5,894 bases of DNA from a virus: IMG/VR virus record IMGVR_UViG_3300045988_034719, positions 1-5,894 of that record. One strand, written 5' to 3'. Positions 1 to 5,894 of the stretch are shown here, in pieces. Made by a program: the position numbers and the translations under genes. Under the pieces are notes generated by a model that did no database searches, was not told the origin of the DNA, and saw only the letters and a program-made list of their open reading frames with translations. Each line of letters begins with the position of its first letter. Position 1 is the stretch's first letter.

Positions 1-55
1 AGCAGGCAGCGAGAGCAGCACAGGCAGCGAAAGCACAACCGGCAGTGTGACAGCA
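1..55. repeat. Terminal redundancy, left copy. Exact 55-nt duplicate of 5840..5894, the signature of a circular genome or assembly overlap.
   Basis: Base-by-base comparison: agcaggcagcgagagcagcacaggcagcgaaagcacaaccggcagtgtgacagca occurs at both window ends. The reading frame of the 3' end ORF (5736..5894) continues seamlessly into 2..757. Confidence 0.95.
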
Positions 56-757
56 CCGCAGCAGATCGGAACGGCACAAATCAGCACACCAACAGGCATT
101 GCCACATTTGGCAACCAGAGCAGTGTAAACACCGCAAACGCACTGCAAATGATGAGCGGACTACTGAGCAACCTCGCAAACGCCGGGAGCCAAGCAAGCG
201 CCAAGAAGTACAACAGCGCAGAAGCAGCAGCAGAAAGAGCGTTTCAGAAGGAAATGCGCGGGACAGCCTATCAAGACACTGTAAAAGATATGATCGCAGC
301 GGGCATCAATCCTATCTTAGCAGCGACCAACGGCGCAACAAGCTCACCGTCAGGAGCATCTGCAAGCATTGGAAGCCAACGTTATAACCAGCAGAGCGCA
401 CAAGCCGCAAGCGTATCCGCAATGTACGAATATGGCAACAACACAGCAGAGCTAGCAGACAAATACTTACAGCTAGCAAAACAGAGCACCAGCGCAAAAC
501 AGTATAAAAGCGCGAAAAGCTGGGAGCAGGCAGCAAGCGAGCTGGCAAGCTCAAGCGCAAAACAGGTGCAACAGTACACCTATACAGCTAACAAGTTAAG
601 CACAGGCCTTGCGGATGCTGGTAAAGCAGCAAAAGACGCTGTAAAAAAGGCTGGTAAAGCAGCCAAAGAAAGTATTGACAAGGCAGCAAAAAAATATGCA
701 GAAAAACAGATTGAAAAATACCGATCTAGAAAATTTGACGCATACAGAGGAGAATAA
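2..757 (+). CDS. VP2: Microviridae VP2 (DNA pilot / minor capsid protein), 3' portion. The ORF starts at 5736 and wraps across the circular junction. Full length is about 286 aa.
   Basis: The frame is open from position 2, and the track's GTG at 47 is an internal Val. It contains the conserved gokushovirus VP2 motif FQKEMRGTAYQDTVKDMIAAGINPILA (compare the ..STAYQR.V.DM.AAGLNP.L. family motif). The middle is Q/A/S-rich and the C-terminus is Lys/Ala-rich and helical. Stop TAA at 755..757, followed by a terminator. Confidence 0.85.
   Translation, partial: AGSESSTGSESTTGSVTAPQQIGTAQISTPTGIATFGNQSSVNTANALQMMSGLLSNLANAGSQASAKKYNSAEAAAERAFQKEMRGTAYQDTVKDMIAAGINPILAATNGATSSPSGASASIGSQRYNQQSAQAASVSAMYEYGNNTAELADKYLQLAKQSTSAKQYKSAKSWEQAASELASSSAKQVQQYTYTANKLSTGLADAGKAAKDAVKKAGKAAKESIDKAAKKYAEKQIEKYRSRKFDAYRGE
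617..669 (+). repeat. 33-nt-period direct repeat inside VP2, encoding 11-residue (hendecad) repeats AGKAAKDAVKK / AGKAAKESIDK.
   Basis: gctggtaaagcagcaaaaga (617..636) recurs as gctggtaaagcagccaaaga (650..669), with 19/20 identity and an offset of exactly 33 nt. Confidence 0.7.
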
Positions 758-763
758 GAAAGG

Positions 764-794
764 AAGGGGGGATGGCAAAACATCCCCCCTTTTT
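764..794 (+). terminator. Rho-independent terminator downstream of VP2.
   Basis: Stem ggggggatg (766..774) pairs with catcccccc (781..789), loop gcaaaa. AA/TT extension, then T-tract ttttt (790..794). It lies 7 nt after the VP2 stop. Confidence 0.8.
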
Positions 795-1044: not shown

Positions 1045-1095
1045 GAGGTGTCAACCGGCACAAGATAGACAAGGAAGCTTGTGCCGGTAACAAAA
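1045..1095 (+). promoter_or_regulatory. VP4 translation-initiation region: SD GAGGTG (1045..1050), an 11-bp-stem hairpin (1054..1064 / 1078..1088, 13-nt loop), then 7 nt before ATG 1096.
   Basis: accggcacaag (1054..1064) is the perfect reverse complement of cttgtgccggt (1078..1088). Loop atagacaaggaag contains a second SD-like AAGGAAG. The alternative GTG start (1081) is inside the 3' stem arm. Confidence 0.5.
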
Positions 1096-2085
1096 ATGCC
1101 ATGTACAAAACCATTAGTATTTCAGATGGACACGAAAAAACCGCAACTGTGGGGAAGTCTGGAAAACCTATCCAAACAAGGACTGCAAACGGACATCATG
1201 GACGGAATCAAAAAAGGAAAATTCGCATTGTTACCATGCGGTAAGTGTGAGTATTGCAGAAAACAGATGGCTGATCAATGGGCAACCAGAATAGAGCTAG
1301 AGGCCAAAGAATGGGACGATGTGATTTTTCTAACGCTGACATATGACGATGAACATATCCCATACGGCGAGATTATCAAAGGCTACAGAAGCATTCAAAG
1401 TCAGACAGTAAGCAAACGAGACGTGCAGCTATTTATAAAGCGGCTACGAAAAGCATACAAGAAACCAATAAAATATTTCCTAGCTGCTGAATATGGCGAC
1501 AGAACAAAAAGACCGCACTACCATGCAATAGTATTTGGACTAAAACCACCGGATGCACAATGGTATAAAAACCAAAAGGGCAACAGCTATTTTAAAAGCG
1601 AGTGGCTAGAAAAAATCTGGGGCAAAGGCATGATAGACTTTTCACCAGCGCAACCGGGAAGTTTCGCATATGTGGCACAATACGTCAACAAAAAAGCCAT
1701 AGGCGCAGAGCAAGCGGCGAAATACTGGATGGAAGGCCGAGAGCCAGAGTTCCGCATCATGTCGAAAGGCATCGGCGAAAAGTATCTGAACGAACACAAA
1801 AACGAAATCTTGAAAACAGATAGCATCATCTGTGCAGGAGGCCGCAAGAAAAGGCCTCCGCGCTATTTTGATAAGATTCTAGATAAAGATACCAGCCAAG
1901 ACACAGAAAACTATTTTAGGGCACATTCTGACGAGCTGAGAGAGGTTAGAGCCAGACGCAGACGCAGCGCAATACAAAGTTTGGTCAATCTCGAGCAAAA
2001 CACAAGTGTAGATTATGAAACCTATCTCAACATTCAGAAAGAAAAAGACAAGCTAAAGCAAAAGTGGCGTGAGCCGAAAGCATAA
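1081..2085 (+). CDS. VP4: Microviridae VP4 replication initiation protein (HUH rolling-circle endonuclease). The alternative start ATG 1096 is equally plausible.
   Basis: Motifs read from the translation: CGKCEYCRKQMADQW (Cys cluster typical of gokushovirus VP4), FLTLTY (RCR motif 1), RPHYHAIVFG (HUH motif, H146/H148, nt 1516..1524), YVAQYVNKK (catalytic Tyr motif, Y197/Y201, nt 1669..1683). Starting at ATG 1096 gives MPCTKPL, a typical VP4 N-terminus. Confidence 0.9.
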   Translation: MPVTKMPCTKPLVFQMDTKKPQLWGSLENLSKQGLQTDIMDGIKKGKFALLPCGKCEYCRKQMADQWATRIELEAKEWDDVIFLTLTYDDEHIPYGEIIKGYRSIQSQTVSKRDVQLFIKRLRKAYKKPIKYFLAAEYGDRTKRPHYHAIVFGLKPPDAQWYKNQKGNSYFKSEWLEKIWGKGMIDFSPAQPGSFAYVAQYVNKKAIGAEQAAKYWMEGREPEFRIMSKGIGEKYLNEHKNEILKTDSIICAGGRKKRPPRYFDKILDKDTSQDTENYFRAHSDELREVRARRRRSAIQSLVNLEQNTSVDYETYLNIQKEKDKLKQKWREPKA

Positions 2086-2199: not shown

Positions 2200-2228
2200 T
2201 TGACAAATGTAAAATTTTATGATATAAT
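2200..2228 (+). promoter_or_regulatory. Consensus sigma70/sigmaA promoter P1 (TTGACA, 17 nt, TGnTATAAT).
   Basis: TTGACA at 2200..2205, exact 17-nt spacer, TATAAT at 2223..2228, extended -10 TG at 2220..2221, A-rich UP-like tract aaaaaataaaaac upstream. The predicted TSS is near 2235, just upstream of the SD and ATG of the 2254 ORF. Confidence 0.75.
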
Positions 2229-2620: not shown

Positions 2621-2648
2621 TTGACAAAAATCAAAAACATAGTAAAAT
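2621..2648 (+). promoter_or_regulatory. Near-consensus sigma70/sigmaA promoter P2 (TTGACA, 16 nt, TAAAAT) in front of the peptidase gene.
   Basis: TTGACA at 2621..2626 and TAAAAT at 2643..2648. The upstream context AAAAAGTTGACAAA closely resembles P1 (AAAAACTTGACAAA). Caveat: the predicted TSS (about 2655) falls at the SD, giving a very short leader. Confidence 0.55.
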
Positions 2649-3592: not shown

Positions 3593-3998
3593 TGTGATGG
3601 TAAGATACTACGGACTGCCGACCGAAAGAGCGGCAAACAATCCGGGCAGCAAGACCTCGCCAACGTGGAAAGCAGTTAAACGACCGAACGGCACAACCGA
3701 CTACATCGAGCAGCCGGACGAGGACACATACGAAAAAATCCAGAAAGCGGGCGAGGGCTACGACCTTGCAAGCGCGATCGCACGGCTGGAAGCAGGGGAT
3801 ACGAGCATCAAGGCAAAGAGCATGGTGTACACCGAAAACACTGAACTCGAAAATCTGCCGAAAGACATCATGACGATGCACGAAAAAGCAGAAGCAGCAG
3901 CCGAAACAATGGAACAGCTGAAACAGGTGCAGCAGACCGAACAGCCGAAGCCAGAAGAAAAAAAGGAAGAGGTGAAGGAAAACGAACCGAAACAGTGA
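3579..3998 (+). CDS. Putative internal scaffolding protein (VP3-like), 139 aa. The functional assignment is tentative.
   Basis: SD AAGGAG (3566..3571) lies 7 nt before ATG 3579. There is a 14-nt overlap with VP5, and the gene sits immediately upstream of VP1. The protein is acidic with a highly charged C-terminal tail (EQPKPEEKKEEVKENEPKQ). I can verify only weak resemblance to VP3 motifs. Confidence 0.55.
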   Translation: MLNPDVMVRYYGLPTERAANNPGSKTSPTWKAVKRPNGTTDYIEQPDEDTYEKIQKAGEGYDLASAIARLEAGDTSIKAKSMVYTENTELENLPKDIMTMHEKAEAAAETMEQLKQVQQTEQPKPEEKKEEVKENEPKQ

Positions 3999-4023
3999 AA
4001 ACCATTTCGCGCAAGTGCCGCGA

Positions 4024-5697
4024 ATGGAACGACCACGAAGCAAATTTGACAGAAGCCATCAGCTACTGACAACCATCAACGAAGGCGATCTGGTGCCCAT
4101 CTACTGCGATGAAGTGCTTCCGGGTGATACAGCACGTGTACGCCTGAACGGACTTATCCGTATGAGTACGCCCATCTATCCGGTGATGGATAACGCATAC
4201 ATGGACACATATTTCTTCTTTGTTCCATGCCGTCTGCTGTGGGAACACTGGGAGAACATGTTCGGCGAGAATGACACCGACTACTGGGCGCAAAAGATGG
4301 AATACAGCACACCCAAATGCGAAATTGGTGGGGAGAGCGGACTTAACAACGGCAGCATTGGCGACTATTTCGGACTGCCTACCGGAGTAAAAAACAAAAT
4401 CAGAGTGAACGCGCTGCCAGCACGCGCCTACGCCATGATATATAACGAATGGTTTAGAGATGAAAATATTGAAGCGCCGTTAATGTTAGGGTACAAAAAA
4501 GAAGATAGCGGAGGAAAAGAAACAAATCCCGGGAACGCAACAAAAGATTACTACGCAAACAAACCAAAACTAACGACAAACACAAACGAAGCGATCTTAT
4601 ACGCACGACAACCGGCAAAGGTGGGAAAATTCCACGACTACTTCACATCCTGTCTTCCTACTCCGTTGAAAAATAACCCTGTTAACCCTGTGGAAATCAG
4701 CCTGACGGGAAATGCACCACTTAAACTAGGAGATATAAATGGTAAACCAATTCCAAGCCTAGAAACGGGCAATGGGCCAGAAATGGTAATAGCCGTGAAC
4801 CAAAATCTAAATACCCCGGGAACGTTAACTTACGCAAGAGCAACAGACAAAAAAGTAATGCAATTCACGGGAAAAAAGGATAACGAAATCGGCGGAGGCG
4901 GTTTTTTGTACACAGACCTCAGCGGAGTAAGCGCAATCAGCATTCAGGATTTGCGCATGGCTATTGCCTTGCAGCACATCTTTGAAGCAGATGCACGCAA
5001 CGGCACGCGCTACCGCGAGTTCCTTTCCGGCGCATGGGGCGTGACAAGTCCGGACAGCCGTTTACAGATTCCTGAATACATCGGCGGCCAACGCATCGCG
5101 ATCAATATCAACCAGGTTGTCCAGACGAGCCAGACAGACCCGACAACCAAACAGGCACTGGGCAATACGGCGGCATACAGTCTGACCACGTGCAGCAAGC
5201 AAATGGTGGACTATGCGGCGACCGAATACGGCTATATCATCGGTCTGGCAGTAGTGCGAGTAGAGCACAGTTACCAGCAGGGACTGGCAACCAAGTGGAC
5301 ACGTGGCGGGCGGTTCACCTACTACGACCCGAGACTAGCAGCACTGGGCGAGCAGCCGGTATATAACCGTGAAATCTATGCACAGGGCACAACCGAAGAT
5401 GACGAAATCTTTGGATATCAAGAGGCATGGGCGGATTACCGCTACAAGCCTTCCTACGTAACCGGAGAAATGAGATCCAATTACCAGACAAGTCTGGATG
5501 CATGGCACTATGCAGACGATTATAACGCTCTTCCGCGTCTCTCGGCAGAGTGGATCCAAGAGGGACAGGAGAACATCGACCGAACGATTGCAGTAACAAG
5601 CGCAAAAAGCCACCAATTCTTGTGTGACTTCTACTTCACAGAAGATTGGTATCGCGAAATGCCTATCTATAGCATCCCGGGCATCGAGAGAATCTAA
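4024..5697 (+). CDS. VP1: Microviridae major capsid protein VP1 (Phage_F family), 557 aa. An alternative GTG start lies at 4015.
   Basis: N-terminal RSKFDRSH....T.NEGDLVPIYCDEVLPGDT, plus LRMAIALQHIFEADARNGTRYREFLSGAWGV..PDSRLQIPEYIGG, are hallmark VP1/F motifs. No SD precedes either start. A 6-bp hairpin (4006..4011 / 4019..4024) spans the start region. Confidence 0.95.
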   Translation: MERPRSKFDRSHQLLTTINEGDLVPIYCDEVLPGDTARVRLNGLIRMSTPIYPVMDNAYMDTYFFFVPCRLLWEHWENMFGENDTDYWAQKMEYSTPKCEIGGESGLNNGSIGDYFGLPTGVKNKIRVNALPARAYAMIYNEWFRDENIEAPLMLGYKKEDSGGKETNPGNATKDYYANKPKLTTNTNEAILYARQPAKVGKFHDYFTSCLPTPLKNNPVNPVEISLTGNAPLKLGDINGKPIPSLETGNGPEMVIAVNQNLNTPGTLTYARATDKKVMQFTGKKDNEIGGGGFLYTDLSGVSAISIQDLRMAIALQHIFEADARNGTRYREFLSGAWGVTSPDSRLQIPEYIGGQRIAININQVVQTSQTDPTTKQALGNTAAYSLTTCSKQMVDYAATEYGYIIGLAVVRVEHSYQQGLATKWTRGGRFTYYDPRLAALGEQPVYNREIYAQGTTEDDEIFGYQEAWADYRYKPSYVTGEMRSNYQTSLDAWHYADDYNALPRLSAEWIQEGQENIDRTIAVTSAKSHQFLCDFYFTEDWYREMPIYSIPGIERI

Positions 5698-5707
5698 GAA
5701 AGGAGGA

Positions 5708-5733
5708 AGCCCCGCAAAAGCGGGGCTATTTTT
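5708..5733 (+). terminator. Rho-independent terminator between VP1 and VP2. It also acts as the hairpin bridging SD 5699..5706 to the VP2 ATG at 5736.
   Basis: agccccgc (5708..5715), loop aaaa, gcggggct (5720..5727), then atttttt... (tattttt to 5733). It lies 11 nt after the VP1 stop (5695..5697). Confidence 0.75.
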
Positions 5734-5735
5734 GA

Positions 5736-5894
5736 ATGGAAACATTATTAAGGTTTATGCCATACCTCATGCAAGGACTAAGCATGTTAACGGGCATCAT
5801 AACGAACAGCAACCAGAGCGGCGCCAAGAACAGCCAAGAAGCAGGCAGCGAGAGCAGCACAGGCAGCGAAAGCACAACCGGCAGTGTGACAGCA
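5736..5894 (+). CDS. VP2: VP2 (DNA pilot protein), 5' portion. It runs off the window end and continues at position 56 of the window (5840..5894 duplicates 1..55).
   Basis: The frame from ATG 5736 (METLLRFMPYLMQGLSMLTGIITNSNQSG..) is in frame with 2..757, since 5886 GTG equals 47 GTG. It has the hydrophobic N-terminus typical of VP2. An in-frame alternative ATG lies at 5757. Confidence 0.75.
   Translation, partial: METLLRFMPYLMQGLSMLTGIITNSNQSGAKNSQEAGSESSTGSESTTGSVTA
5840..5894. repeat. Terminal redundancy, right copy. Identical to 1..55.
   Basis: Same 55-nt string as 1..55. Implies a circular unit length of 5839 nt. Confidence 0.95.

Follow-up and report, generated by a model that had tools for sequence, protein, structure and literature searches.

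Split initiation at gene 25 of bacteriophage T4 was reportedly described by Nivinskas et al. 1999 and by Malys and Nivinskas 2009 (as reviewed). In T4, hairpins shorten the distance between the Shine-Dalgarno (SD) sequence and the AUG codon from 22 to 5 nt for gene 38 and from 27 to 11 nt for gene 25; mutations that destabilise the hairpins lower initiation, and the arrangement is limited to close T-even phages (PMC3014915). An SD sequence acting at a distance has also been described for metA of Sinorhizobium meliloti, in which the SD inside a SAM-II riboswitch is needed for initiation 74 nt downstream and a Rho-independent terminator lies between the two; a standby-like local-concentration effect was proposed by the authors, the mechanism being undefined (PMC9373788). 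Within the Microviridae, phage phiX174 carries the leaky terminators TJ, TF, TG, and TH, with a block of 20-40% at TJ, TF, and TG (10.1101/2020.03.05.979765).

In the genome analysed here, which belongs to a group of gokushoviruses of the human gut, an SD sequence, a hairpin of terminator form, and a start codon follow each other in this order between the genes for the major capsid protein VP1 and for VP2, and the sequences make it rather likely that one and the same hairpin acts as a leaky terminator and also bridges SD and AUG. The stretch of DNA analysed, hereafter the window (IMGVR_UViG_3300045988_034719; 5,894 nt), is a complete circular genome with a unit of 5839 nt and a terminal overlap of 55 nt, positions 5840-5894 being an exact repeat of positions 1-55. 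With its circular form, a size within the range of about 4.5-6 kb, and the genes for VP1, VP2, VP3, VP4, and VP5, all carried on the plus strand, it belongs to the Gokushovirinae (Microviridae). Pfam searches gave Phage_F for VP1 (E = 1.9e-145), REP_ORF2-G2P for VP4 (the replication initiator), and Phage_ORF5 for VP5; the match of VP3 to Chlamy_scaf (the Chlamydia-phage scaffold) was weak, and an M15 peptidase was also matched. Over 83% of its length, the genome shows 88% identity with Human gut gokushovirus KX513876. Since the genome is circular with the 55-nt overlap, VP2 runs through 5736-5839 and then through 1-757, and its product is 286 aa long. A search of Rfam returned no family at the VP1-VP2 junction, and two sub-threshold chance matches elsewhere in the genome. 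The features discussed below are listed in the table.

Table. Positions in the window of the genes and signals considered in the text.
Feature	Position	Strand	Remarks
VP2 gene, 3' part	1..757	+	frame continuous with 5736-5839; stop TAA 755-757
Second terminator-like hairpin, 3' of VP2	764..794	+	AAGGGGGGATG-GCAAAA-CATCCCCCCTT, then TTT
VP4 leader, SD-hairpin-ATG	1045..1098	+	GAGGTG 1045-1050, TCA, stem, AACAAAA, ATG 1096
Promoter-like site	2200..2228	+	TTGACA-17-TATAAT with TG; consensus
Promoter-like site	2621..2648	+	TTGACA-16-TAAAAT
VP1 major capsid gene	3982..5697	+	annotated ATG 4024; probable start ACG 3982; Phage_F
VP1 stop codon TAA	5695-5697	+	
Shine-Dalgarno sequence AAAGGAGG	5699-5706	+	conserved core AAGGAGG 5700-5706
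Hairpin AGCCCCGC-AAAA-GCGGGGCT	5708-5727	+	8 bp, G+C-rich, AAAA loop
Spacer ATTTTTGA	5728-5735	+	8 nt; A5728, TTTTT 5729-5733, in-frame TGA 5733-5735
VP2 start codon ATG	5736-5738	+	
VP2 gene, 5' part	5736..5839	+	crosses the circular junction

The SD core begins 2 nt past the VP1 stop codon and ends 1 nt before the hairpin. As the initial annotation had claimed, the SD at 5699..5706 is read directly at a distance of 29 nt from the VP2 ATG (G5706 to A5736), and inspection of the spacer revealed no SD-like sequence beside this ATG. The further claim that the 8-bp GC-rich hairpin cuts the spacing to about 9 nt was borne out by the sequence, in which subtraction of the 20-nt hairpin leaves 9 nt (1 + 8), and by the predicted energy of the hairpin alone, -16.6 kcal/mol (z = -4.0; 3 of 200 shuffled sequences were as good). 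RNA folding, which had been suggested as a check, predicted the hairpin with pair probabilities of 0.94-1.0 in three contexts of 70-160 nt. The predicted cost of freeing the SD, the spacer, and the AUG with the hairpin kept was 3.3 kcal/mol, and that of melting the region 5700-5750 was 23.6 kcal/mol. In the fold model, GGAGG is partly paired with the U-tract by weak G-U pairs, the unpaired probability of 5703-5705 being about 0.2, and the start region around the VP2 AUG is A/U-rich and weakly structured. The hairpin together with its T-tract had also been described as an intrinsic terminator, and this form is indeed found: the stem of 8 bp (7 G-C) and the loop of 4 nt, within the 5-12 bp and 3-8 nt usual for such sites, are followed by A-UUUUU and the stem starts 10 nt after the VP1 stop, the site 5708-5733 was picked up by a terminator scan, and the T5 run (5729-5733) is invariant in 51/51 related sequences.

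Single-sequence motifs in this genome do not exceed chance. Terminator-like sites in the window numbered 9 versus 9.7 expected, without excess, and AGGAGG occurred 5 times versus 2.2 expected, a count reached in 19/200 shuffles and not significant. Comparison carries the significance, which comes from 84 junctions with the same architecture, a near-invariant SD core, compensatory changes in the stem, and no insertion or deletion between SD and ATG.

Relatives were gathered from IMG/VR, metagenomes, GTDB genomes, and GenBank, and the census comprised 217 distinct VP1-stop contexts, of which 84 belong to the clade of the window (VP1 at least about 73% identical); variation per position was counted in 51 unique sequences. 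Every one of the 84 clade junctions consists of the stop codon, the SD heptamer, A, a 20-nt hairpin, an 8-nt spacer, and ATG, with a distant SD, none adjacent to the ATG, and a constant SD-to-ATG length. The SD heptamer was AAGGAGG in 75, AAGGAGA in 7, AAAGAGG in 1, and GAGGAGG in 1, and the spacer, always of 8 nt, was ATTTTTGA in 60, ATTTTTAA in 23, and ATTTTTGG in 1. The only indel is an insertion of 10 nt in one genome (L108) between stop and SD, by which the SD is placed 12 nt from the stop; this is the only interval whose length is immaterial to the bridging model. Positions 5700-5711 showed 0-3 variants in the 51 sequences, whereas position 5699 varied in 25 of them and the two bases just before the SD core vary freely. 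Flanking third codon positions on both sides were variable in 20-30 of the 51 sequences, close to saturation, and it is against these near-saturated neutral neighbours that the conservation of SD and hairpin is seen to be local. The pattern of substitutions thus points to purifying selection on the SD despite its distance of 29 nt from the ATG.

The stem is maintained by compensatory changes. In the stem alignment, 96% of the cells were paired, two pairs showed double changes, and the covariation score was reached by none of 500 shuffles. The stem CCCCGC/GCGGGG is replaced by CCGGG/CCCGG, with C-G changed to G-C at two pairs; it is CCTCGC/GCGAGG after a change from C-G to U-A via U-G (L054 and L023), the U-G intermediate being found in L054; and it is CCCTGC/GCAGGG in L240, with a further C-G pair changed to U-A. 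Counted as independent events, the compensatory changes are few (about four). Covariation is equally expected for a hairpin that acts as terminator only, and the support for bridging therefore rests on the conservation of the SD, the fixed spacing, and the comparison with the sister clade. The 3' arm of the stem, GCGGGG, was considered as a cryptic SD and ruled out, the arm being CCCGG in subclade B.

The start codon of VP2 was examined along the same alignments. With a single exception, the sequences have an in-frame stop codon (TGA or TAA) directly before ATG 5736, and third-position wobble starts at codon 2 of VP2 (5739; GAA/GAG in 26/51 and ACA/ACG in 25/51). The VP2 proteins of the window and of the sister clade are homologous (E = 1e-22 to 1e-35), with their first Met residues aligned. 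Three downstream codons were rejected on the ground of the coding signature across VP2 codons 2-11: ATG 5757 is preceded at 3 nt by no more than AAGG and is changed to TTG or CTT in many relatives, ATG 5769 (Met-12) is without an SD, and ATG 5784, although AAGGA lies 6 nt before it, is replaced by ATA, CTG, or CTA in relatives. The aligned sequences thus identify ATG 5736 as the VP2 start, the codon so named by the initial annotation: the in-frame stop upstream, the wobble from codon 2, and the aligned Met-1 all support it, and the ATG codons at 5757 and 5784 are not conserved. The protein would thus begin with METLLR.

Outside the clade of the window, the VP1-VP2 junction is organised in other ways. 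In the sister clade (VP1 about 54% identical), TAA is followed by GGAGGTG, GGGGGTG, or AGAGGTG, 5-7 nt, and ATG, and the hairpin is absent. Prophage relatives on 38-153 kb contigs of Clostridia/Christensenella metagenome-assembled genomes (MAGs) carry TAA-(T)AGGAGG-6 or 7 nt-ATG, again without the hairpin; many aquatic gokushoviruses show an overlap of VP1 and VP2 as TAATG. A terminator-like hairpin after VP1 was found also in L057, L137, L138, L145, L195, and L279, in which an SD follows downstream at the canonical distance. Judged from this census, the order SD-terminator-ATG is specific to the clade of the window. Since the sister clade and the prophages have the same SD after the stop and no hairpin, the hairpin looks inserted into an existing ribosome-binding site (RBS), and the simplest history would be that hairpin and U-tract were inserted into an ancestral TAA-SD-spacer-ATG, the SD not being moved, and that the arrangement was then long kept. 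A host among the Firmicutes is made probable by the relatives integrated in Clostridia contigs. The clue to the host was taken only from these integrated relatives on 38-153 kb contigs; a Bacteroides host, as might be read from L214 (an 82%-identical genome in the bin 'Bacteroides sp. CAG:545'), was disregarded, this genome being an unintegrated contig of 5.7 kb from a metagenomic bin.

The use of SD sequences elsewhere in the genome was then compared. Seven other genes have an SD 4-8 nt from the ATG, and for this reason the host appears to be SD-dependent. No SD precedes ATG 4024 of VP1. Between the VP3 stop and ATG 4024 lie 25 nt in which nearly all variation falls on third positions of the VP1 frame, and the upstream reading in this frame, (T)NRNSENHFAQVPRM, is homologous to the N-terminus of sister-clade VP1, MNRNAEQHY. 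Among 76 unique sequences, the codon at 3982 was ACG in 62, ATA in 7, ATG in 2, GTG in 2, and GCG in 1, and two further sequences had GGA at the 3982 offset owing to extra bases upstream, one of them (L019) having GTG when aligned; GAGGTGA lies 6 nt upstream of 3982. Most likely, as far as these alignments indicate, VP1 starts at a non-AUG codon (ACG 3982) with a canonical SD, and its N-terminal peptide would then be (M)NRNSENHFAQVPR. With a VP1 start at 3982 served by an SD, one can no longer object that the phage manages without SDs. Relative to the ATG annotated in GenBank relatives, the start at 3982 would add 14 codons. A conserved structure of the VP1 leader bridging an SD to ATG 4024 was also considered and rejected, RNAalifold giving only -4 kcal/mol and no compensatory pairs; the upstream non-AUG start fits better. 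A literature search for ACG starts in phages returned nothing relevant.

A second SD-hairpin-ATG leader in the same genome precedes VP4. Its stem consists of 11 bp (1054-1064 with 1078-1088) with a 13-nt loop and covaries, one pair being A-U, G-C, or C-G and another C-G or U-A. Most genomes have an effective spacing of 9-10 nt, but L012 has one of 16 nt, so that the spacing is less strict than that of VP2. In the sister clade, the VP4 leader has a GTGTCA-hairpin homologous to this one, and a canonical SD comes after it. Two other assignments were rejected: GTG 1081 as VP4 start is GGG or GCG in subclade B, in which ATG 1096 persists, and the loop sequence AAGGAAG as VP4 SD is AAGTAAG in subclade B, in which the upstream GAGGTG persists.

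With respect to transcription, a scan of the plus strand for promoters found only the sites at 2200 and 2621 and none between 2648 and VP2, so that the mRNA of VP2 must be read-through RNA. The second terminator-like hairpin, downstream of VP2, is kept in most clade members; its palindrome (764-794) was listed by the terminator scan on the minus strand. We infer that transcription terminates at the junction hairpin, that this termination is leaky, and that translation of VP2 depends on both the SD and the folded stem. Transcripts from the two strong promoters at 2200 and 2621 would extend over the small genes and over VP5, VP3, and VP1, and at 5708-5733 the GC-rich hairpin and U-tract would stop some of the polymerases, giving messages that end with VP1. 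On the read-through RNA, the hairpin would re-form and hold the SD core (5700-5706) about 9 nt from AUG 5736, and a 30S subunit bound to the SD could reach this AUG with the hairpin looped out, as in T4 genes 25 and 38. The output of VP2 would then be set twice, by the frequency of read-through and by a sub-optimal bridged site; the width of the helix adds to the nominal 9 nt, and for that reason the bridged site may be a poor one.

The position of the hairpin close to the VP1 stop raises the question of what the ribosomes that finish VP1 contribute. A stem starting 10 nt after the stop lies at the edge of the range in which a terminating ribosome can disturb hairpin folding (PMC4824070), and because of this distance the translation of VP1 could modulate read-through, if transcription and translation are coupled in the host. 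A ribosome terminating VP1 stands a mere 10 nt before the stem, so that de novo initiation at the bridged site is indistinguishable from reinitiation or from interference with the hairpin. An alternative built on this proximity is that VP2 is translated mainly by ribosomes finishing VP1, which upon release are retained as 30S (or 70S) by the SD and capture AUG 5736, the hairpin being mainly a terminator and the SD a tether for these instead of a landing site for free ribosomes; it agrees with the ribosome standing at the foot of the hairpin, with an SD within 2 nt of the stop throughout the clade (the one exception being at 12 nt), and with the TAATG or TAA-SD-ATG junctions of many gokushoviruses, which are typical coupling arrangements. 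On the other side, 38 nt separate the AUG from the stop, a hairpin of -16.6 kcal/mol stands between them, and the genome with the 10-nt insertion tolerates these extra nucleotides between stop and SD. Since a ribosome that does not translocate must bridge or melt the hairpin, such reinitiation also needs the bridge, and the two readings are not mutually exclusive; reinitiation in place of bridged initiation is considered unlikely.

It is quite unlikely, in turn, that VP2 is translated from a weak SD-independent start in the A/U-rich region AUUUUUGAAUGGAAACAUUAUUAAGG, with AAGGAGG as a standby or parking site, a modulator of read-through, or a stabiliser of the mRNA. The weak structure of the A/U-rich surroundings of the AUG would permit such a start, the SD upstream of the metA terminator acts at a distance in a standby-like manner (PMC9373788), and a purine-rich run also precedes the terminator at 764. 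That run, however, is variable and forms part of the stem of its terminator, whereas the SD of VP2 is near-invariant and lies outside the stem; moreover, SDs at 4-8 nt serve all remaining genes of the phage, the Clostridia-integrated relatives indicate a host of Firmicute type, and the strictly fixed flanks of 1 and 8 nt would be left without explanation. The hairpin could also act at the level of DNA, for example in complementary-strand synthesis or packaging, the placement between SD and ATG being incidental. The primosome assembly hairpin of phiX174 lies in the F-G intergenic region, which is a point in favour of such a role, and the junction hairpin is predicted to be stable in single-stranded DNA as well (5690-5760, -13 kcal/mol, z = -4.6). 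An 8-bp stem with a conserved T5 on the transcribed strand right after a gene is, however, the signature of a terminator, the conservation of the SD and the fixed spacing are not explained, and the lack of the hairpin in the sister clade makes an essential replication signal at the junction improbable; altogether, this role is very improbable.

The bridging of SD and AUG by the hairpin, as originally proposed for VP2, agrees with the sequences in every prediction that could be tested on them, namely selection on the SD, fixed spacing, covariation, the start codon, relatives without the hairpin, and the geometry known from T4. A broader scheme, advanced here only tentatively and judged somewhat short of an even chance, would combine a coupled two-level valve at the junction, in which an element of 26 nt restricts VP2 to read-through RNA and its translation to molecules with the stem folded, with a bridged SD for VP4 and an ACG start for VP1, giving three core genes each with a non-canonical initiation signal of its own. 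If the reading of the junction is true, one short hairpin would set the ratio of capsid to pilot protein twice, by attenuating transcription and at the initiation of translation; so compact an arrangement would be a design principle suited to very small genomes and a part of use in synthetic operons. The hairpin-bridged SD, experimentally documented in T4-type phages of E. coli, would then extend to single-stranded DNA phages, probably with Firmicute hosts. Gene callers that need an adjacent SD or an ATG/GTG/TTG start would misjudge VP2 and VP4 (distant SDs) as well as VP1 (ACG), and the natural series of junctions without a hairpin, with the terminator before the SD, and with the terminator after the SD would offer ready-made constructs.

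Among the systems described, T4 gene 25 is similar to the present junction in that a long stretch (27 versus 29 nt) containing a hairpin separates SD and AUG and the flanks of 1 and 8 nt are the same, the arrangement in the T4 genome being GAGG-1 nt-18-nt hairpin-8 nt-AUG. Both sites are intercistronic, and both are confined to one clade with a contiguous site in distant relatives. The hairpin of gene 25 is of 18 nt, A/U-rich, weak, and without a U-tract (centroid of the 61-nt region, -5.6 kcal/mol), whereas that of the window is of 20 nt, G+C-rich, and strong (-16.6 kcal/mol) and takes the form of a terminator with its U-tract; in addition, the function of gene 25 was proven by mutagenesis and probing, while that of the site in the window is predicted. 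T4 gene 38, arranged in the T4 genome as UAA (the stop of gene 37)-GGAG-8-bp hairpin with UUCG loop (20 nt)-AAAU-AUG, runs through the same elements as the window: after the stop of a structural gene come an SD, a hairpin of 20 nt (8 bp, G+C-rich, 4-nt loop), a short spacer, and an AUG. In gene 38, however, the SD extends into the base of the stem, just 4 nt separate the stem from the AUG (a folded spacing of about 4-5 nt), and no U-tract is present and no terminator role implied; the host is E. coli for T4 and probably a Firmicute for the phage of the window.

The metA leader is similar with respect to the position of the SD upstream of an intrinsic terminator (validated in metA) and of the AUG downstream, the read-through transcripts of metA being translated, but is different in its distance of 74 nt, complex structure, decoy AUG1, and location in a regulatory 5' leader instead of an intercistronic junction. 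The closest parallel for the terminator within the Microviridae is phiX174, in which Rho-independent terminators also lie right after the capsid genes and downstream transcripts drop stepwise; phiX174 belongs to another subfamily, its terminators are not described between an SD and a start codon, and the block is a measured one in phiX174, whereas termination at 5733 is predicted. Those features of a split RBS of the T4 gene 25/38 type that can be read from sequence or from a predicted fold are all found in the window: an SD too distant to act linearly (beyond about 15 nt), a hairpin that in the predicted fold leaves SD and AUG single-stranded, a folded spacing of 9 nt within the T4 range of 5-11 nt, conservation in the clade together with compensatory changes, and relatives with a contiguous site. 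The split RBS itself is known from T4, and what appears to be new here, as judged from these comparisons, is a split RBS in a microvirus with a bridge that has the form of a terminator.

A total of two promoter-like sites of the sigma-70/sigma-A type were identified on the plus strand of the window, one of them being a perfect TTGACA-17-TATAAT sequence with an extended TG, and each lies ahead of a block of small genes. As no other promoter-like site was found on this strand within the window, the sequence implies that all the late genes, VP2 and VP4 would be transcribed from these two starts. The genome is a circle of 5839 nt, the exact terminal repeat of 55 nt (1-55 and 5840-5894) being an assembly overlap.

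Features identified in the window in addition to the VP1-VP2 junction
Feature	Position	Location	Composition
Terminator-like hairpin, second	764-794	directly 3' of VP2	AAGGGGGGATG/GCAAAA/CATCCCCCCTT, then TTT
Non-coding region with repeats	800-1040	between VP2 and VP4	
VP4 leader	1045-1098		GAGGTG, 3 nt, 11-bp stem with 13-nt loop, 7 nt, ATG 1096
Promoter-like site (sigma-70/sigma-A)	2200-2228	plus strand	
Promoter-like site (sigma-70/sigma-A)	2621-2648	plus strand	
VP1 start region	3969-4026		candidate start ACG 3982, annotated ATG 4024

Ahead of the terminator-like hairpin that follows VP2 there is a similar TAAGAAAGGAAGG run. The hairpin is conserved; in some relatives a different insert takes its place. 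If both this hairpin and the terminator of VP1 act, the level of transcripts should decrease in steps, in the order VP1 > VP2 > VP4. A long stop-free frame that overlaps VP2, +2 relative to it, was noticed by eye from 5732 onward and into 1-400. The T-poor composition of the plus strand is the likely cause, and this frame is regarded as spurious as a gene because the codon-phase pattern, the third-position wobble among 51 unique junction sequences, supports the VP2 frame alone.

Between VP2 and VP4 the sequence is non-coding and carries recurring units of the TTTTCAACA type, including two repeat pairs, 826-853 with 974-1001 (89% alike) and 847-865 with 910-928 (95% alike); (ACT)6 occupies about 1002-1019. 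Iterons or an origin may be located in this region. The leader of VP4, the replication initiator, repeats the order of SD, hairpin and ATG found at VP2, and covariation is present in its stem. The SD-like AAGGAAG of the loop and GTG 1081 are not kept among the relatives compared. In the sister clade, of which VP1 is about 54% identical to that of the window, a normal SD is preceded by a homologous GTGTCA-hairpin, the loop of which fits the pattern A(A/C)ATCAAGA(G/A)GG, and for this reason the hairpin may have another primary role, for instance at an origin or as an operator.

Three relatives of VP1 (L215, L216 and L217; 45-48% identical) are located inside contigs of 38-153 kb from Clostridia and Christensenella MAGs, and are probably integrated gokushovirus prophages. 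Their location provides a clue to the host, consistent with the SDs in the window, which are strong and extended.

As judged from sequence comparison, VP1 itself probably starts at ACG, 14 codons upstream of the annotated ATG. GAGGTGA is located 6 nt before this ACG, and along the 25 nt from the VP3 stop to ATG 4024 variation is almost confined to the third positions of the VP1 frame. The VP1-frame peptide upstream of the ATG, NRNSE(N/S/D)HFAQVPR, is kept among relatives, with its Ser encoded by TCN codons as well as AGC, and aligns to the N-terminus MNRNAEQHY of sister-clade VP1. At 3982, 62 of 76 unique sequences have ACG, the codons of the others including ATA (7), ATG (2), GTG (2) and GCG (1). 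If true, a non-AUG start on VP1, the most abundant protein of the virion, would be unusual for a phage.
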